From positions 1 through 64,000 of IMG/VR virus record IMGVR_UViG_3300003583_000001: a stretch of DNA of 64,000 nt; one strand, written 5' to 3'. Positions 18,180-41,869 of the stretch are shown in pieces. The notes below the pieces were generated by a model that was not told the origin of the DNA, made no database searches, and saw only the letters and a program-made list of their open reading frames with translations. The DNA is from a virus. Numbering within the stretch: the stretch's first letter is position 1; each line of letters opens with the position of its first letter. The position numbers and the translations under genes are program-made.

Positions 18180-18364
18180 TCTACACACTCCTCAATACAA
18201 ATCTCCTTATGAATCTCATAACGGTAACCGTCGGCTGCTCGCCAAGTGTGCTTGACCGTATGCTCCAACATTGACAGATTGTCAGTGTCATAGTCTTGCT
18301 TTAACACCTGACGCTCTCCAGCTTTAGTACGCTTGTCTGTTTTGTAAATCTCTACAGTAAGCAT
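18176..18364 (-). CDS. Hypothetical protein
   Basis: AGGAG RBS, operon packing. Confidence 0.65.
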   Translation of the reverse strand: MLTVEIYKTDKRTKAGERQVLKQDYDTDNLSMLEHTVKHTWRAADGYRYEIHKEICIEECVE

Positions 18365-18374
18365 TGTCTTCTCC

Positions 18375-18593
18375 TTATGAACGAATGCCGTGTTCTGCTG
18401 CTAACTCAGTTCCGTTGAACAGAGTGAAGCCATCCACATCGTTGATAGCAACCATCACTTCGAGGTCGATACCAGCTTTGGTACGAACGCTCTCAATGCG
18501 ACCCCTACCAAGAGGAGTATCGATGAAGTTGCCTTCGGCACCCCAAAGGTCTTCCATGAAGGTCTTCATCTCAGGAGAAATAGTCTTGGTCAT
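18375..18593 (-). CDS. Hypothetical early protein
   Basis: First ORF after an early promoter, GAAAGGA RBS. Confidence 0.65.
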   Translation of the reverse strand: MTKTISPEMKTFMEDLWGAEGNFIDTPLGRGRIESVRTKAGIDLEVMVAINDVDGFTLFNGTELAAEHGIRS

Positions 18594-18621
18594 CTGTCTT
18601 CCTTTCATTCTCACTATACTT

Positions 18622-18650
18622 AATATAGCAACTCTGAAGACAAATGTCAA
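18622..18650 (-). promoter_or_regulatory. Early sigma70 promoter (repeat family)
   Basis: TTGACA-tttgtcttcagagttgc-TATATT with upstream A-tracts. Confidence 0.88.
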
Positions 18651-18678
18651 GAGTTATTTTCACTTTTTTCAAAAAAAA

Positions 18679-18754
18679 TGGTGCTGCCACGAGGATTCGA
18701 ACCCCGGACCTGAGGTTTACAAAACCCCTGCTCTACCGACTGAGCTATAGCAGC
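18679..18754 (-). tRNA. tRNA-Thr(UGU)
   Basis: GCTGCTATAGCTCAGTCGGTAGAGCAGGGGTTTTGTAAACCTCAGGTCCGGGGTTCGAATCCTCGTGGCAGCACCA; full cloverleaf with encoded CCA. Confidence 0.96.
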
Positions 18755-19914
18755 TTAATATTCATATGTGTTAGCATATCGTTTGCTAGGTCACGAAACC
18801 AAACGCTATCGTGACCTCGTGTAGTCTCAGCGGCTGTCCCAATACGAATACCACTTGTTTCTACAAAAGAGCGTGGATCGTTAGGCACACCATTCTTATT
18901 CACTGTGATGCCCTTTGCTTCAAGCATATCTGCTGCATCTCGACCAGAACGATTCGTCCCACTGAGATTTAGCAAAACGATATGAGAGTCTGTACCACCA
19001 GTCTGTACGTTCATACCTCTGTTAGTGAATACATTACACATCACTCTAGCGTTATGAATAACCTGCTGGCTGTATAGTTTAAAGTCATCAGTGTTAGCCT
19101 CAATGAACGCTTGTGCTTTTGCAGCAATCATATTCATCAGAGGTCCGCCCTGTGTGCCAGGAAATATAGCGCTATTTATTTGCTTCGTATAAGATGGGCG
19201 GTTCCATAGAATGATGCCGCCTCTGGGACCACGAAGCGTCTTATGAGTTGTGCTTGATACTACGTCAGCAAAATCACATGGGTTTTCATAGGCACCACCT
19301 GCAATCAAGCCAGAGTAGTGAGCCATATCTACGAATAGATAAGCGCCAACACTGTCTGCAATCATCCGCATTGCTTCCCAGTCGATTTGTCGAGGATAAG
19401 CACTCGCACCAGCAACAATCATCTTTGGCCTGAACTGACCAGCCTTATCAGATACCTCTTGGTAATCGATGAAGCCATTCTCGTCCACACCATATGAATG
19501 TGCTTTGTATATTTTTCCTGAAGCAGTCATTGGCGCACCATGAGTTAGATGTCCGCCAGAAGCAAGGTCCATACCGAGGATCGTATCACCCGGTTTTAGG
19601 AATGCTTGATATACAGCCATGTTAGCATTAGCGCCAGAGTGCGGCTGTACGTTAGCATACTCACACCCATAGAGTTCTTTCAGTTGGTCAATCGCCAACT
19701 GCTCAATCGAATCCATATGCTCACAGCCGTTGTAATAACGCTTGCCTGGATAACCTTCCGCATACTTGTTTGTAAAGACGCTACCACAGAGTTGCATAAC
19801 AGCATCACTAGCAAAGTTCTCACTAGCAATCAACTCAATCGTATCATTTTGTCTAGTAACCTCACTTGATAAAATTTTATTGACCCTACTGTCAATTCCT
19901 GTACCGTGATACAT
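18745..19914 (-). CDS. glyA: Serine hydroxymethyltransferase
   Basis: IELIASENF, NKYAEGYPGKRYYNGC, VQPHSG and TTHKTLRGPRGG (PLP lysine); start at 19914 after GGAG. Confidence 0.97.
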   Translation of the reverse strand: MYHGTGIDSRVNKILSSEVTRQNDTIELIASENFASDAVMQLCGSVFTNKYAEGYPGKRYYNGCEHMDSIEQLAIDQLKELYGCEYANVQPHSGANANMAVYQAFLKPGDTILGMDLASGGHLTHGAPMTASGKIYKAHSYGVDENGFIDYQEVSDKAGQFRPKMIVAGASAYPRQIDWEAMRMIADSVGAYLFVDMAHYSGLIAGGAYENPCDFADVVSSTTHKTLRGPRGGIILWNRPSYTKQINSAIFPGTQGGPLMNMIAAKAQAFIEANTDDFKLYSQQVIHNARVMCNVFTNRGMNVQTGGTDSHIVLLNLSGTNRSGRDAADMLEAKGITVNKNGVPNDPRSFVETSGIRIGTAAETTRGHDSVWFRDLANDMLTHMNIKLL

Positions 19915-20002
19915 TTCATCTCCATTATCTCTCATAAAGTCCCAATGCGACAATCGTTTTTCGTTCATTTTAATAGCATTCCAATAAACAGTTAGTAGAT
20001 CA

Positions 20003-20188
20003 TTATACTTTATCATTATAACTATTCACAAATTTGTGGGCTAGTGATTCATTGTCATATTTATATTTTACAGCAAATTCTGTGTTGGAATTTTTATGAT
20101 GAATCCAAATTTCATATCCATCATTATCAAGGTCATGAACTCTTGCAAATCCATCACGTTCATTCGAGGGCATTTTTGCAACCAACAT
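20003..20188 (-). CDS. Hypothetical protein
   Basis: GGAG RBS, 61-aa ORF. Confidence 0.55.
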   Translation of the reverse strand: MLVAKMPSNERDGFARVHDLDNDGYEIWIHHKNSNTEFAVKYKYDNESLAHKFVNSYNDKV

Positions 20189-20205
20189 AAAAACGACTCC
20201 AACAG

Positions 20206-20235
20206 AAAAATAGAGGGGAGAACAACTCCCCTCTA
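20206..20235 (-). terminator. Intrinsic terminator after the OMP-like gene
   Basis: TAGAGGGGAG-TTGTT-CTCCCCTCTA-TTTTT. Confidence 0.85.
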
Positions 20236-20244
20236 TATATCACG

Positions 20245-20620
20245 TTAGAATTTAACTGAGGTTGTGAACCCCACAAAAGTATCTTGATATGCAGCGTCAC
20301 CATCTGTCGTCATTTTAACATATGGCGTTACACCAACATTAAACAATTCCAAATTGTATCCAGCTTCAAGTTCAACGCCGGTCAATTCAAACTCATCAAC
20401 AAGTACTGTTGGCGTTACACCAACATAAATATTATTCCAATCGACGGTTGCGCTAGGCTCTGCTGTGATTGTGCCTGCATCGATTGCATATGCTACATCA
20501 TTGCTGAGTGTAAGACCGAGACCATATGGCAATAGACCGCCTTCTGGTGCTGCTTCGCCATCTGCTAGTGCAGGCGAAGCAAGAAATGCTGTAACTGCTA
20601 CAGCGGCTAGTAGCTTCTTC
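20245..20620 (-). CDS. Small outer-membrane beta-barrel-like protein
   Basis: Sec signal (MKKLLAAVAVTAFLASPALA), alternating beta strands, C-terminal VGFTTSVKF ending in Phe. Confidence 0.7.
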
Positions 20621-20645
20621 ATTTATTTGACTCCTTTAAAGTTAA

Positions 20646-20905
20646 AAATGACAGGAAGGTCCGAAGACCCCTTCTGTTTCCAAGCGTCCTGTCCCGCTCA
20701 TAAGAATTATGCTGCTAGAGCATATTCCTGAGAAACGAAATTATCGTTTGCATTTAGTTTGTTTTAGTCATATCGTGACCAATCGGTAACTCCAGTCCTC
20801 TATTATCTGCATGTCGAAACCTGTTTCGCCCCCATAAGGTTTATGGTGGAGGCGTCCGGTACTGCCCCGGAGTCCATTACAGTTTTCAATTTCCTTCATC
20901 GTTAC
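20646..20905 (-). ncRNA. ssrA: Circularly permuted (two-piece) tmRNA, tag ANDNFVSQEYALAA; outer ends approximate
   Basis: Acceptor piece ...TCCGG-GGCAGTA-CCGGA-CGCCTCC-ACCA (ends 20844), 10-nt spacer, coding piece GGGGGCG... (starts 20833) with G3-U70 pair, tag ORF 20751-20707, CUUCGG-capped terminal hairpin. Confidence 0.95.
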
Positions 20906-20943
20906 TTCTGTATATATCTAATCCCAAAAGACTAGATATATAA

Positions 20944-21642
20944 CTATTTCTCTAGCATCTTTCTCTTGAATGCTAACCAACCAATGAATCGTTTTTCAAA
21001 CCACCACTCAAGGTCTTTATATTTCTTGAACTGCTGGTCAAATCCAGTAGGATCAAACGATGGCTTGGGATTGCGAACGTTTGTGCCAGGAATAATTTTG
21101 TTCGTGGAATACTTAGCATATTGCTTTTTACCCATAATCTTCTGCACGAACTCAGGCATATCCAATAGATAGTAGTATTCAGCATCCATTATGATTTCAT
21201 TTTCTATCTTTTTGTTAGGCCAGTCGTGCTTGTATAGAGGTTTCAATTCATCAGGTCGAATGTCACGATTACTACCCAAATCTATCACATTAGGGCTCCA
21301 GTGAATAGTGAAGTTCTCTGGAGGAATTACCATGTGAAGTTCACCAAAGATTGAGCTACCTCTTGGTATATGTGTGCAAAAGATAGGGTTTTTAATATCC
21401 ATAGACAACAGCAGCTTTTGCTGATCAGCCATATCAGCACCACCACGGGCAATCCCATCTGCTCTGGTAGAAGTAACCTTGTCTAGCAATCCTTTATATT
21501 TCTTATTGAATGACCGATAGAGAATAAACTCGTTCCTGACAGGTTTTAGCAATCTGATTGCCTTTTTGACCCTATTTTCCATATGGTCGATCTGTCTTGC
21601 ACTGATAACATCTTCATTTAGGTATGACTTAAATGTTAGCAT
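20944..21642 (-). CDS. Putative internal head protein, possible ADP-ribosyltransferase fold
   Basis: N-terminus MLTFKSYLNE resembles the T4 capsid-targeting sequence; ILYRS...IFCT...ENEII pattern. Confidence 0.55.
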   Translation of the reverse strand: MLTFKSYLNEDVISARQIDHMENRVKKAIRLLKPVRNEFILYRSFNKKYKGLLDKVTSTRADGIARGGADMADQQKLLLSMDIKNPIFCTHIPRGSSIFGELHMVIPPENFTIHWSPNVIDLGSNRDIRPDELKPLYKHDWPNKKIENEIIMDAEYYYLLDMPEFVQKIMGKKQYAKYSTNKIIPGTNVRNPKPSFDPTGFDQQFKKYKDLEWWFEKRFIGWLAFKRKMLEK

Positions 21643-21643
21643 A

Positions 21644-23788
21644 TCAGTCTTCTTTTGATGGGTCAACTGGCACATCAACTTCGATATCACCGTCCTTGAT
21701 AGCTTTAGTTACTAGGGCAGCAAGGTTCCAATCGTATGTACCACCAAACTTTCCTTCAGGGTCGTAACCATCTTCTTTTTTCTCTTCGCTCATGCTAATC
21801 ATCCTTTGAAGTGATAATAGTATTCTACGACTTTCTACTGCTTCTGTCAACCCTTTTTTCAATTTTTCTACAATACTTTTGTAAGCAAATCCCATGTAGA
21901 CGCCTTGAAAGAATATTCTACTTGAACCATCAACTGTTCGTTCTTCTGCTTCTACAACTTTGATGATAGAAGTGGGTGGTAAAATAATTTCTTGCTCAGG
22001 TTCGTGTTGACTATGTTCTAAGATGGGTATAACCTTAGACCCTTTCGGTAAAAAGATTCTCATTCTATCTTTACCGCCGATAGTCACATCTGTTCTTAAA
22101 GATGCGCTTGTGAAAGCTGGGTCAACGTATTCATAGCCAGGAACAATCGCTTCTCTCATTTCATATGGCACCAGAGTAGAACGATACACATACATGCTCT
22201 CTGGTAGAGGCTTTAGCGTTTCAAAAATTTTTGCCATTTTAGCAATCTTTTTCGTGCCGCTTGTCAATTCGTCAATTTCAGCCTTAGTAAGAGGTTCTTT
22301 TCTAAACAACTTACTCACAATTTTTCTAAGAGGATCGTTGAAAGAAGTATAACCCGAACCACTATAATGTACAACATTTTTATATACTGATTTGGGCAAA
22401 TTCTCTATCTCATTATAATAATTGAGTCCGTCTTGACTTTGTAAGTGCTGGCGAATTGTACCAATATCATATTCCGAACTCTCTACAAAGAAAGTCCCTT
22501 TAATCTTTACTTCACTCGTACCAGTTCCAGGCATTGTTGATTTGAACTCTGTCATATCAATATCTAACTTAGGCTTCTTTTTTACCTTACTGGGCTTTGA
22601 TACGGCAGTTTTTATAGAATCAAAAGCAGCTTCTTTCTTAGCATTTCGATAAGCAATAATTGCCATCATATGTTTTTCGTCGCTGGCATCAACAGGCATA
22701 GCCATATACTTCAGAATCTCAATCCAAATTTGTCCAGTTGCGCCCTTGATATTACCCAAGTTTGCGTCAGGAAGACTACCGCCAGCAGCCATCGTATCTA
22801 CGAGTTGTTTATTAAACGTACTCATTTGATTATACACATATTGTAAATTATCAAAATCTACTTTCTTTACATCAAATCCATTTACTCGTAATGCGTTTGC
22901 CATTTTAGCAAACTCTGGAATTGTTCTAAGAGCATTAGCAAGAGCGCCAACTGATGACATATCCTCTGGATCGAAAACTCCTGAAGAATCAATCTTTTTC
23001 TCTACTTCCACTTGCTTTTCAATATGCTTCGCTACTTCACCTGACATTTTAGTGGCCGCTAACTTATCAAGGAGTTCTGTATCAGAAGGCACATCTAAAT
23101 CGTATTGACCAAAAGTGTATTTCTTTGATGGTGCTATTGTATGTGTTTGCTGGACTGGCTTTTTTGGCTTCATAGAGTCTAGAGACTTGAGAAGAGCGTC
23201 TGAATTGTCATTTTTAGAAGGATCGAAACCAAACTCTTTGAATTCTTTTGCTTTGAAAATTGCTTCAGGAGATAGTGCTTTTTTTCCTATAAAGACATAG
23301 CCATGATTGTATTTTTTAGTAAACTGTTTTTCGCCAACCTGAGTTACTTGAAACACCGTGAAGATATTCATCGAAGATTTTTTGAGCGCTTTAATGGCAA
23401 TGCGTTCAGCTACTTTTCTTTTTCCTATCTGACCATGTAGACGAATTGCTATACCAGTAAGTTTCGGACCAACTGTAGTTATTGCTTTTTTTGCAAAATC
23501 AAGCGTTGTCGCAATTACAGGCAAAATATCTGATGGATTATGAAACTTCCACCATCCAGCTTTGCCTCCAACCTTTTTAACTTTACCCACATCTAGAGTG
23601 TATATACCTTCGCCATTTTGCTCAACAAGACGTATGATATATGTGCCGCCATTAATTGTAGTAGCACCATACATTTTGCTTGGTAAGACTGTATCATCAG
23701 TCATATAATATTCTTTGGGATTGTTCAACGCTTCTGCGAGAAGAATGTCCTCATTCAGATTGTTAAAAATATCGAATTTTTTCAGCAC
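21644..23788 (-). CDS. alt: Alt-like ADP-ribosyltransferase (R-S-E class)
   Basis: YSGSGYTSFNDPLR, VYRS, FTSASL and EQEIIL catalytic motifs; 714 aa; late promoter upstream. Confidence 0.85.
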   Translation of the reverse strand: MLKKFDIFNNLNEDILLAEALNNPKEYYMTDDTVLPSKMYGATTINGGTYIIRLVEQNGEGIYTLDVGKVKKVGGKAGWWKFHNPSDILPVIATTLDFAKKAITTVGPKLTGIAIRLHGQIGKRKVAERIAIKALKKSSMNIFTVFQVTQVGEKQFTKKYNHGYVFIGKKALSPEAIFKAKEFKEFGFDPSKNDNSDALLKSLDSMKPKKPVQQTHTIAPSKKYTFGQYDLDVPSDTELLDKLAATKMSGEVAKHIEKQVEVEKKIDSSGVFDPEDMSSVGALANALRTIPEFAKMANALRVNGFDVKKVDFDNLQYVYNQMSTFNKQLVDTMAAGGSLPDANLGNIKGATGQIWIEILKYMAMPVDASDEKHMMAIIAYRNAKKEAAFDSIKTAVSKPSKVKKKPKLDIDMTEFKSTMPGTGTSEVKIKGTFFVESSEYDIGTIRQHLQSQDGLNYYNEIENLPKSVYKNVVHYSGSGYTSFNDPLRKIVSKLFRKEPLTKAEIDELTSGTKKIAKMAKIFETLKPLPESMYVYRSTLVPYEMREAIVPGYEYVDPAFTSASLRTDVTIGGKDRMRIFLPKGSKVIPILEHSQHEPEQEIILPPTSIIKVVEAEERTVDGSSRIFFQGVYMGFAYKSIVEKLKKGLTEAVESRRILLSLQRMISMSEEKKEDGYDPEGKFGGTYDWNLAALVTKAIKDGDIEVDVPVDPSKED

Positions 23789-24487: not shown

Positions 24488-24516
24488 AATATAAGCATTC
24501 TAGAGGCAAATGTCAA
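24488..24516 (-). promoter_or_regulatory. Early sigma70 promoter (repeat family)
   Basis: TTGACA-tttgcctctagaatgct-TATATT. Confidence 0.88.
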
Positions 24517-26085: not shown

Positions 26086-26162
26086 TGGCGGTCCCTATAG
26101 GATTCGAACCTATGACCCACAGCTTAGAAGGCTGTTGCTCTATCCAACTGAGCTAAGGAACC
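26086..26162 (-). tRNA. tRNA-Arg(UCU)
   Basis: GGTTCCTTAGCTCAGTTGGATAGAGCAACAGCCTTCTAAGCTGTGGGTCATAGGTTCGAATCCTATAGGGACCGCCA. Confidence 0.96.
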
Positions 26163-26811: not shown

Positions 26812-26840
26812 AATATAAGCATTTCGAAGGCAAATGTCAA
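26812..26840 (-). promoter_or_regulatory. Early sigma70 promoter (repeat family)
   Basis: TTGACA-tttgccttcgaaatgct-TATATT. Confidence 0.88.
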
Positions 26841-26869: not shown

Positions 26870-26944
26870 TGGCTCCGTGGGTAGGATTCGAACCTACGAC
26901 CGGTCGGTTAACAGCCGACTGCTCTACCACTGAGCTACCACGGA
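26870..26944 (-). tRNA. tRNA-Asn(GUU)
   Basis: TCCGTGGTAGCTCAGTGGTAGAGCAGTCGGCTGTTAACCGACCGGTCGTAGGTTCGAATCCTACCCACGGAGCCA. Confidence 0.96.
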
Positions 26945-27240: not shown

Positions 27241-27269
27241 AATATAAGCATTCTGAAGCCAAATGTCAA
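27241..27269 (-). promoter_or_regulatory. Early sigma70 promoter (repeat family)
   Basis: TTGACA-tttggcttcagaatgct-TATATT. Confidence 0.88.
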
Positions 27270-30100: not shown

Positions 30101-30466
30101 TTATCTCCTCATCTTTGCTAGTGCTTCAGCATCTTCAGTAGAAAACACTGGAACCATATTACTCTTGTGCATCGTTGCAATACCAAGTAGCTTACGCTTA
30201 CCACTATATTGCATAGGTTCTTTTTTCGGTGCCACACCAGTTGGAATTTGATTAGAAAGCGTGGTGGGCCCGGCAGGATTCGAACCTGCGACAACGCCGT
30301 TATGAGCGGCGGGTTCTGACCGCTGAACTACAGGCCCGTTATATCCCATCTTCTTGAGAAACTTTGCATGAGCAGCATCTGTTTGTTGCTGCTTCTTTGA
30401 CTTCTTCTGTTTTCGCTTCTTCGTACTCGTTGTACTGAAGTAAGCTGGAAGCATATGCATCGACAT
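30101..30466 (-). CDS. Basic phage protein containing an in-frame nested tRNA gene
   Basis: GAGGAG RBS and own promoter; C-terminal GIATMHKSNMVPVFS...MRR motif recalled from T4-like hypothetical proteins; abuts the next ORF. Confidence 0.75.
   Translation of the reverse strand: MSMHMLPAYFSTTSTKKRKQKKSKKQQQTDAAHAKFLKKMGYNGPVVQRSEPAAHNGVVAGSNPAGPTTLSNQIPTGVAPKKEPMQYSGKRKLLGIATMHKSNMVPVFSTEDAEALAKMRR
30262..30337 (-). tRNA. tRNA with CAU anticodon, most likely tRNA-Ile2 (lysidine)
   Basis: GGGCCTGTAGTTCAGCGGTCAGAACCCGCCGCTCATAACGGCGTTGTCGCAGGTTCGAATCCTGCCGGGCCCACCA; G1-C72 paired (not initiator); C4-G69 and C5-G68 TilS determinants. Confidence 0.93.
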
Positions 30467-34994: not shown

Positions 34995-35023
34995 AATATA
35001 AGCATTCTGACGCCAAATGTCAA
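34995..35023 (-). promoter_or_regulatory. Early sigma70 promoter (repeat family)
   Basis: TTGACA-tttggcgtcagaatgct-TATATT. Confidence 0.88.
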
Positions 35024-38475: not shown

Positions 38476-38504
38476 AATATAAGCACTCTGACAGCAAATG
38501 TCAA
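38476..38504 (-). promoter_or_regulatory. Early sigma70 promoter (repeat family)
   Basis: TTGACA-tttgctgtcagagtgct-TATATT. Confidence 0.88.
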
Positions 38505-40573: not shown

Positions 40574-40602
40574 AATATAAGCATTCTGGCGGCAAATGTC
40601 AA
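40574..40602 (-). promoter_or_regulatory. Early sigma70 promoter (repeat family)
   Basis: TTGACA-tttgccgccagaatgct-TATATT. Confidence 0.88.
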
Positions 40603-41840: not shown

Positions 41841-41869
41841 AATATAATCATTTTAGAAACGAATGTCAA
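41841..41869 (-). promoter_or_regulatory. Early sigma70 promoter
   Basis: TTGACA-ttcgtttctaaaatgat-TATATT. Confidence 0.82.

Follow-up and report, generated by a model that had tools for sequence, protein, structure and literature searches.

RNase P cuts a folded transfer RNA (tRNA) precursor 5′ of its first nucleotide, G1. In mitochondria, where an open reading frame (ORF) directly adjoins a tRNA on its 5′ side, excision of that tRNA sets the 3′ end of the messenger RNA (mRNA), and a residual U or UA is completed to UAA by polyadenylation, an arrangement called tRNA punctuation. For segB of phage T4, maturation of tRNA-Arg has been proposed to cut right after the last sense codon, ahead of the stop, thus impairing the mRNA and leading to an incomplete product (Brok-Volchanskaya et al. 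2008, NAR 36:2094; PMC2330249). A survey of bacteria reports upstream same-strand overlaps in 250 of 115,660 genes for tRNAs or transfer-messenger RNAs (tmRNAs), and its candidates for high-frequency non-stop mRNAs include smpB/ssrA in Carsonella and an ftsW-family gene with tRNA-Ile in Helicobacter (Hudson, Lau & Williams 2014, Front Microbiol 5:421; PMC4131195). As cited in that survey, RNase III cuts the arfA message upstream of its stop, and the resulting non-stop message is a tmRNA substrate. In Escherichia coli, one RNase P cut parts the secG mRNA from leuU in <30 s, after which the mRNA decays from the 3′ side (half-life <30 s), 80% of the mapped 3′ ends lying within the coding sequence (Mohanty & Kushner 2008; PMC2241853). 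The idea that tRNA maturation leaves a message without a stop is thus not new, having been proposed for segB/tRNA-Arg in 2008 and surveyed in bacteria in 2014, while our keyword literature searches on phage stop codons overlapping a tRNA and on nonstop messages surfaced no relevant paper. Here we analyze glyA, the gene for serine hydroxymethyltransferase (SHMT), and the tRNA-Thr gene in which it ends in an uncultured marine T4-like phage. The window is a stretch of 64,000 nucleotides (nt), positions 1 to 64,000 of IMG/VR virus record IMGVR_UViG_3300003583_000001, which is 73.9 kb long and 43% complete.

Both genes are on the minus strand. The 423-residue glyA (18745-20016) is the sole long ORF at the locus; it has no earlier in-frame stop and no stop codon of its own outside the tRNA, and its 3′ end reads ATG AAT ATT AAG CTG CTA TAG. 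The 76-nt tRNA-Thr(UGU) gene, with its CCA encoded, covers 18679-18754, and its G1 (18754) is the third base of the AAG codon. The two genes therefore share 10 nt (18745-18754)—i.e. that base, CTG, CTA, and TAG—and the glyA stop at 18747-18745 is U8-A9-G10 of the tRNA, inside the mature molecule. A preliminary description of the locus, made from the sequence without database searches, had given the same end of glyA, the same base shared by AAG and G1, and the same position of the TAG, and our reading confirms all three exactly. An out-of-frame TAA directly abuts G1, and a glyA message that includes its stop must extend through at least nt 1-10 of the tRNA.

This arrangement is like that of segB and tRNA-Arg in that an ORF of a T4-type phage abuts a tRNA with which it is, or would be, cotranscribed. 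The two differ in that segB encodes a homing endonuclease and is cut just before its stop, whereas glyA encodes a metabolic enzyme and has its stop 7 nt inside the tRNA. With the bacterial class it shares an upstream coding sequence with a Pfam match, on the same strand as, and overlapping, a valid tRNA whose maturation is predicted to leave a non-stop mRNA; the survey covered bacterial genomes, however, whereas here, in a phage, several unrelated ORFs overlap the same tRNA and the junction can be traced. The secG stop, by contrast, lies 14 nt before the tRNA, and a freshly cut secG mRNA keeps its stop, whereas that of glyA is inside the tRNA. We also considered a completion of the stop by A addition, as in mitochondria, and rejected it, because a cut glyA message would end not in U or UA but in an in-frame AA, which becomes AAA (Lys) and not UAA. 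Among the relatives only contig L236 would fit such a scheme: its 186-aa ORF (L236:1279-1815, plus strand) ends in a TAG that straddles G1 (ta/G), and by analogy with mitochondria an RNase P cut would leave a UA completable to UAA by A addition.

Both genes are real, and the overlap is a true member of the class of same-strand overlaps between a coding sequence and a tRNA. GlyA matches the Pfam SHMT family (PF00464) over its full length (E = 4e-147, residues 41-411; 490 bits, the curated cut-off being 27; positions 4-396 of the 399 in the profile), and its translation includes THKTLRGPRGG, which we take to be the usual site of the lysine that binds pyridoxal phosphate. Across six contigs the gene is under purifying selection, with ratios of nonsynonymous to synonymous divergence (dN/dS) of 0.07-0.25 at synonymous divergence (dS) of 0.04-0.19. 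The tRNA is called by ARAGORN and by Rfam (RF00005, 68.8 bits), and 10 aligned copies from different contigs differ mainly in loops or by compensatory changes, the latter at stem positions 3:70 (U:A/C:G), 28:42 (G:U/U:A), and 51:63 (G:U/A:U/C:G). Its sequence starts GC... and ends ...GC A CCA, its anticodon is tgt (ARAGORN), and its acceptor stem has G1:C72 and C2:G71, presumably identity elements for threonyl-tRNA synthetase, going by E. coli. ACA, the codon read by this tRNA, is the commonest threonine codon in the long ORFs of the window (344 of 865). It might be argued that the tRNA is a pseudogene or a false call, or that glyA is decaying or mis-delimited, and that there is hence no true conflict between the two. 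Nothing beyond the overall scarcity of such overlaps in bacteria speaks for such an artefact, while the tRNA score, the compensatory changes in three stems, the retention of G1:C72 and C2:G71, and a full-length, constrained glyA without an earlier in-frame stop all speak against it, leaving it next to no probability.

The uncommon element at this locus is an ORF without a stop of its own, not a UAG in a tRNA. U8 and G10 are conserved tRNA positions, and UAG occupies nt 8-10 in all 10 aligned copies of this tRNA-Thr and in 3 of the 4 tRNAs of the window; therefore, any ORF that enters the tRNA in that frame stops there. TAG also serves other long ORFs of the window as a stop. Every overlap uses this one frame, which gives the shortest extension; the other two would add 13 or >30 tRNA-encoded residues.

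How glyA came to end in the tRNA is suggested by a relative (contig L229) that carries an identical tRNA-Thr, followed by the same T-run, early promoter, and downstream 72-aa ORF (ORF72), but no adjoining glyA. Upstream of the tRNA, this contig has another small gene, which stops at a distance of 27 nt; the 10 nt that lead into the tRNA, TGAATATTAA, match the final 10 nt of glyA ahead of G1 exactly. Because a contig without glyA carries the same 10 nt, the final codons of glyA, (A)TG AAT ATT AA(G), are the native leader of the tRNA, and the right-hand junction of the cassette can be placed at this leader (18755-18764, minus strand). The identity of the leader therefore indicates that a glyA cassette became attached at position -10 relative to the tRNA, and that its own stop was lost.

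The glyA loci of other phages are in line with such a junction. Homologues of this phage GlyA are found in 80 viral contigs, and the tRNA is present only in the five closest (95-96% identity); the 10-nt overlap is common to these five and to five metagenome contigs, while at none of the other 75 phage loci retrieved does glyA run into or up to a tRNA. An exact search with the 3′ half of the tRNA-Thr and the T-run retrieved no contigs besides the five already known. Tail lengths of GlyA were scored after a conserved C-terminal WF motif, which is found in 76 of the 80 loci and missing from 4. Among these 76 homologues, the tail has 12 aa in 62, 13 in 7, 14 in 1, and 22 in 1, and a tail of 16 aa occurs only in the contigs where glyA overlaps the tRNA; the 71 motif-bearing loci outside that group have their own stop and a tail other than 16 aa. 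By this comparison, the GlyA of the window is about 4 residues (IKLL) longer than the usual C-terminus.

This type of tRNA-Thr has about 12 distinct 5′ neighbors in viral and metagenome contigs. Among these, four real gene contexts and one doubtful 30-codon frame end inside the tRNA; the genes that stop at nt 8-10 are glyA, an ORF for a PYWEYM protein (in L090, L095, and L123, and again in L130), and an HNH-like ORF (L222:300-686). The 30-codon frame, seen in L225, L228, and L231, was left out of the gene count for want of a start codon, and apparent overlaps with tRNA-Val in L157 and L187 were discarded as artefacts, the "ORFs" being read-through of preceding tRNAs in arrays. Six neighbors have their own stop upstream of the tRNA, at distances of 0 (L126), 4 (L215), 5 (L214), 8 (L125), 13 (L224), and 27 nt (L229); the L214 ORF is lysozyme-like by sequence alone. 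To judge from these contigs, the 5′ flank of the tRNA-Thr is a site of frequent cassette exchange. The L222 ORF (minus strand), directly upstream of the same tRNA-Thr type, is 129 aa long and resembles an HNH endonuclease, and by analogy with SegB in the tRNA region of T4 a homing endonuclease beside the tRNA could drive gene shuffling. An independent case is found at a different tRNA-Thr(UGU), where a gene for a 2OG-Fe(II) oxygenase (PF13759; L145:803-1411, plus strand) ends at the TAG of nt 8-10; that tRNA lies 20 nt upstream of a gene of PHROG 27048, and in L146 the same tRNA has a different upstream sequence.

The closest comparison comes from a sister group of contigs in which the gene order is tmRNA, ORF126, ORF61, X, tRNA-Thr, early promoter, and ORF72, with X standing for three small ORFs that replace glyA. 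Two of these genes serve as synteny markers in the window: ORF61 (61 aa; 20003-20188, minus strand) lies upstream of glyA, overlaps its start by 14 nt, and has homologues in 8 viral contigs, some without glyA, while ORF72 (18375-18593, minus strand; homologues in 29 viral contigs) lies downstream of the tRNA and opens the next unit. The last ORF of X encodes the 63-aa PYWEYM protein, which ends ...KSPL at the identical TAG and in the same frame as glyA. A diverged homologue in L130 ends ...KNMPL within the tRNA, whereas in L125, a close relative of L130, the ORF ends at a TAA of its own 8 nt before the tRNA. The two sequences, "cgt TAA tat att atG" in L125 and "cgt TTA aag aat atG" in L130, are of equal length and frame, and by this alignment a single base change (TAA/TTA) is what toggles between an own stop and a stop in the tRNA. 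This toggle, together with own stops 0-27 nt upstream in other contigs, means that the overlap is labile and not conserved as such. As such, the expected conservation of the overlap in related phages holds for the five viral and five metagenome glyA contigs and fails for the six other neighbors that keep their own stops; likewise, no glyA beside the tRNA stops before it, whereas for the sister ORF a relative does so, with the L125 TAA.

Taken with the junction, this variation leads us to consider it likely that the overlap is a tolerated scar of packing and recombination, with the UAG at tRNA nt 8-10 acting as a back-up stop. The glyA cassette, lacking its own stop, would have been attached 10 nt before the tRNA-Thr, at a hot spot of cassette exchange, and ribosomes would read on across the native leader and nt 1-7 of the tRNA, add the ~4 residues IKLL, and stop at the UAG. 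Specifically, glyA and tRNA-Thr would be carried on a single primary transcript, and GlyA would be made from nascent or unprocessed copies of it, the terminating ribosome transiently unfolding the acceptor and D arms. An RNase P cut 5′ of G1 would then leave an upstream RNA ending ...AUU AA-3′OH, with no stop and no protective 3′ structure, that would decay fast, and ribosomes left on this RNA would need rescue by tmRNA or by a back-up factor; if tmRNA acts, the product would end ...MNI plus the tag. The earlier claim that cleavage removes the glyA stop is thus sound in its structural logic, as ...AUU AA contains no in-frame stop, while its use as a regulatory device is made less credible by the lability of the overlap. 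Because the cut deprives any ORF abutting a tRNA of its 3′ end and, shortly afterward, of its stop, a stop 10 nt into the tRNA would cost little more than the usual ORF stops of this phage, 0-12 nt before tRNAs. So small an extra cost fits the free toggling among relatives, and the overlap would be neither strongly selected for nor against.

For the single transcript, we find no terminator-like site between glyA and tRNA-Thr in our scan, and the promoter scan lists no promoter in the 3′ part of glyA that could drive the tRNA separately; such a promoter would in any case leave the glyA stop unrescued. The glyA/tRNA junction is spanned by one RNA-library contig (X3, record 9; 18709-19107), which does not prove a single transcript, as DNA carry-over is possible; RNA evidence of this kind consists of assembled contigs that give no 5′ or 3′ ends, strand, or level, and the parts that are not covered mean nothing.

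Several points weigh against a tolerated scar. From L229 alone, the event may be read as an insertion of glyA or as its loss in L229, and the glyA clade is so shallow (dS 0.04-0.19) that the invariance of the overlap within it says little either way. The share of neighbors that end in the tRNA is high (4 plus 1 doubtful of ~12), and weak positive selection for the overlap may be at work. In addition, a strong terminator-like hairpin with an 11-bp stem (20210-20236, minus strand) lies just upstream of ORF61-glyA-tRNA, and the scan of the window finds no copy of the early-promoter motif between this hairpin and glyA. Finally, transcripts, RNase P cleavage, stalling, and tagging are, for this phage, deduced from its sequence.

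The tmRNA of the phage raises the question of whether the overlap could instead be a programmed non-stop device, with RNase P maturation as a timer and with late GlyA tagged via the tmRNA and degraded, such that the enzyme is limited to an early window. The tmRNA is a permuted, two-piece molecule of the alpha type (20616-20947, minus strand; 20616-20938 by ARAGORN; Rfam RF04321, 106 bits, and RF01849, 91.5 bits) with the tag ANDNFVSQEYALAA, and it lies 1.87 kb upstream of the tRNA-Thr, in agreement with the preliminary description, which had placed it <2 kb away. Its tag ends in YALAA, a typical ending of a degradation tag, and the tmRNA neighbors the tRNA-Thr, at 1.3-1.9 kb, in both the glyA group and the sister group, which have the overlap. 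The device would also be favored by the removal of the stop at G1, with A addition restoring no in-frame stop, by the several ORF families that end in the same tRNA-Thr, and by the existence of other programmed non-stop messages, e.g. that of arfA, made by RNase III (cited in the bacterial survey; PMC4131195). The arfA arrangement, however, is conserved and forms the basis of a regulatory circuit, whereas the glyA overlap is labile.

The distribution of the tmRNA speaks against such a device. It is found near the tRNA-Thr also in L126, where the neighboring gene stops outside the tRNA, and it is absent from the 7-kb contig L130, which has the overlap, and from contigs with this tRNA in tRNA arrays; therefore, the tmRNA follows lineage and not overlap state. 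The link that had been drawn between tmRNA and overlap is accordingly borne out as to proximity and is otherwise circumstantial. A search for SmpB (PF01668) found nothing in the 73.9-kb record, a result that is uninformative on the phage as the record is 43% complete. The comparative data add to this: close relatives differ by a one-base toggle, six of the genes next to this tRNA have retained stops of their own, and the layout with a cut before the stop is not conserved among glyA genes, with 75 other loci lacking a tRNA at the end and all 71 scored among them having their own stop and a different tail. The cassette junction at -10 accounts for the overlap, and the secG mRNA, whose stop is not in the tRNA, likewise disappears within seconds of the RNase P cut, which argues that the overlap adds little. 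In view of these findings, a programmed device is unlikely. The tmRNA tags themselves vary among close relatives (L095/L124, tmRNA at L095:830-1151; L090:327-698), where we read ANDNFVSQEYALAA, ...YALVA, and ANDNAFIEDYALAA, and a keyword literature search on phage-encoded tmRNA surfaced no paper.

Control might also run in the reverse direction, with ribosomes that terminate at nt 8-10 keeping the acceptor and D arms unfolded and thereby throttling RNase P and the supply of tRNA-Thr. From the footprint and helicase properties of the ribosome, one that stops 10 nt into the tRNA would be expected to cover and unwind the 5′ strand of the acceptor stem and the D arm, and it is the shallow frame alone that is used among all overlaps. 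In the predicted fold, by contrast, the acceptor stem and D arm form alone and the A/U-rich leader stays unpaired, ribosome occupancy is transient, and selection for the overlap is not evident given how frequent own-stop relatives are. Such a throttle is thus very unlikely.

Past the tRNA-Thr, a T8 run (18671-18678) is followed by an early-promoter cassette of the form TTGACATTTG-N13-TATATT (18622-18678 with the run, minus strand), whose -35 (18650-18645) and -10 (18627-18622) elements match at 11 of 12 positions and which starts the next transcription unit. The T8 run was considered as a terminator and rejected, as it is not kept in the relatives L090, L125, and L130. With its upstream A/T tract, the cassette occurs eight times in the window, seven times without a mismatch and once with one, all on the minus strand (18622-18650, 24488-24516, 26812-26840, 27241-27269, 34995-35023, 38476-38504, 40574-40602, and 41841-41869), and a search allowing ≤3 mismatches gives 12 matches vs. 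1.9 expected. Two of the cassettes lie directly 3′ of tRNA genes (Thr and Asn). The repeated cassette is reminiscent of the mobile promoter cassettes known from T4-type phages; its copies may be a source of homology for cassette exchange.

The tRNAs and the tmRNA of the window are all either ≤12 nt 3′ of a same-strand ORF stop or within an ORF, the distance to the upstream stop being 8 nt for tRNA-Arg (26086-26162, minus strand), 12 nt for tRNA-Asn (26870-26944, minus strand), and ~6 nt for the tmRNA. The stable RNAs of the early region thus all appear to be excised from protein-coding transcripts, and the tRNAs to lie at the tail of early messages, each directly followed by the next early-promoter cassette. 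A different kind of embedding is seen for tRNA-Met(CAT) (30262-30337, minus strand; 76 nt), which lies inside an open 121-aa ORF (30101-30466, minus strand) of PHROG 27048, a family without assigned function. At least 281 viral contigs carry full-length homologues, whose N- and C-terminal parts are conserved and joined by a linker that varies: in some contigs it consists of one or two in-frame, stop-free tRNA genes (Met; Met and Pro; Pro; or Trp and Ile), and in others it contains no tRNA. There is no conserved internal start after the tRNA, and removing precisely its 76 nt would put the two parts out of frame. It could be proposed that tRNAs at the end of, or inside, coding sequences are a deliberate strategy of this marine T4-like clade (glyA, the PYWEYM ORF, and the HNH ORF in tRNA-Thr; PHROG 27048 through tRNA-Met, tRNA-Pro, or tRNA-Trp and tRNA-Ile), whereby host RNase P would set the lifetime of early messages and the phage tmRNA would clear and tag the run-off products; we hold this to be quite improbable.

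The wider setting of the locus is that of a T4-type phage with a GC content of 39.6% in the window, which carries genes for gp32, a gp59-like loader, and an Alt-like ADP-ribosyltransferase (Pfam). The last is a protein of 714 aa (21644-23788, minus strand) with an ADP-ribosyltransferase exoenzyme domain (PF03496, E = 7e-11); it is probably the Alt-like enzyme of T4-type phages, which modifies host proteins, and its gene adjoins the tmRNA unit on the upstream side. A DNA search with window positions 18300-21000 against 50,697 GenBank phage records found no close relative and gave distant matches to glyA and to the tRNA, and Pfam and PHROGs assigned no function to ORF61, ORF72, ORF125, ORF63, or ORF66.

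Compared with other overlaps of this class, the glyA case is somewhat more informative, as its junction can be traced and the same tRNA has many alternative neighbors. For annotation, it means that an auxiliary metabolic gene of a phage can be intact despite overlapping a tRNA, and that pipelines should neither trim nor reject either call. If the overlap were a timing device after all, it would represent a new way for a virus to time-limit early proteins through host RNase P and its own tmRNA, against which the comparative data argue. The locus also offers a natural construct with which to measure the cost of an mRNA-tRNA overlap, both in protein yield and in tmRNA load. For the evolution of these phages, it documents how such overlaps can originate: a cassette junction forms 10 nt from a tRNA, the UAG at nt 8-10 catches the frame, and a point change toggles between the two states.

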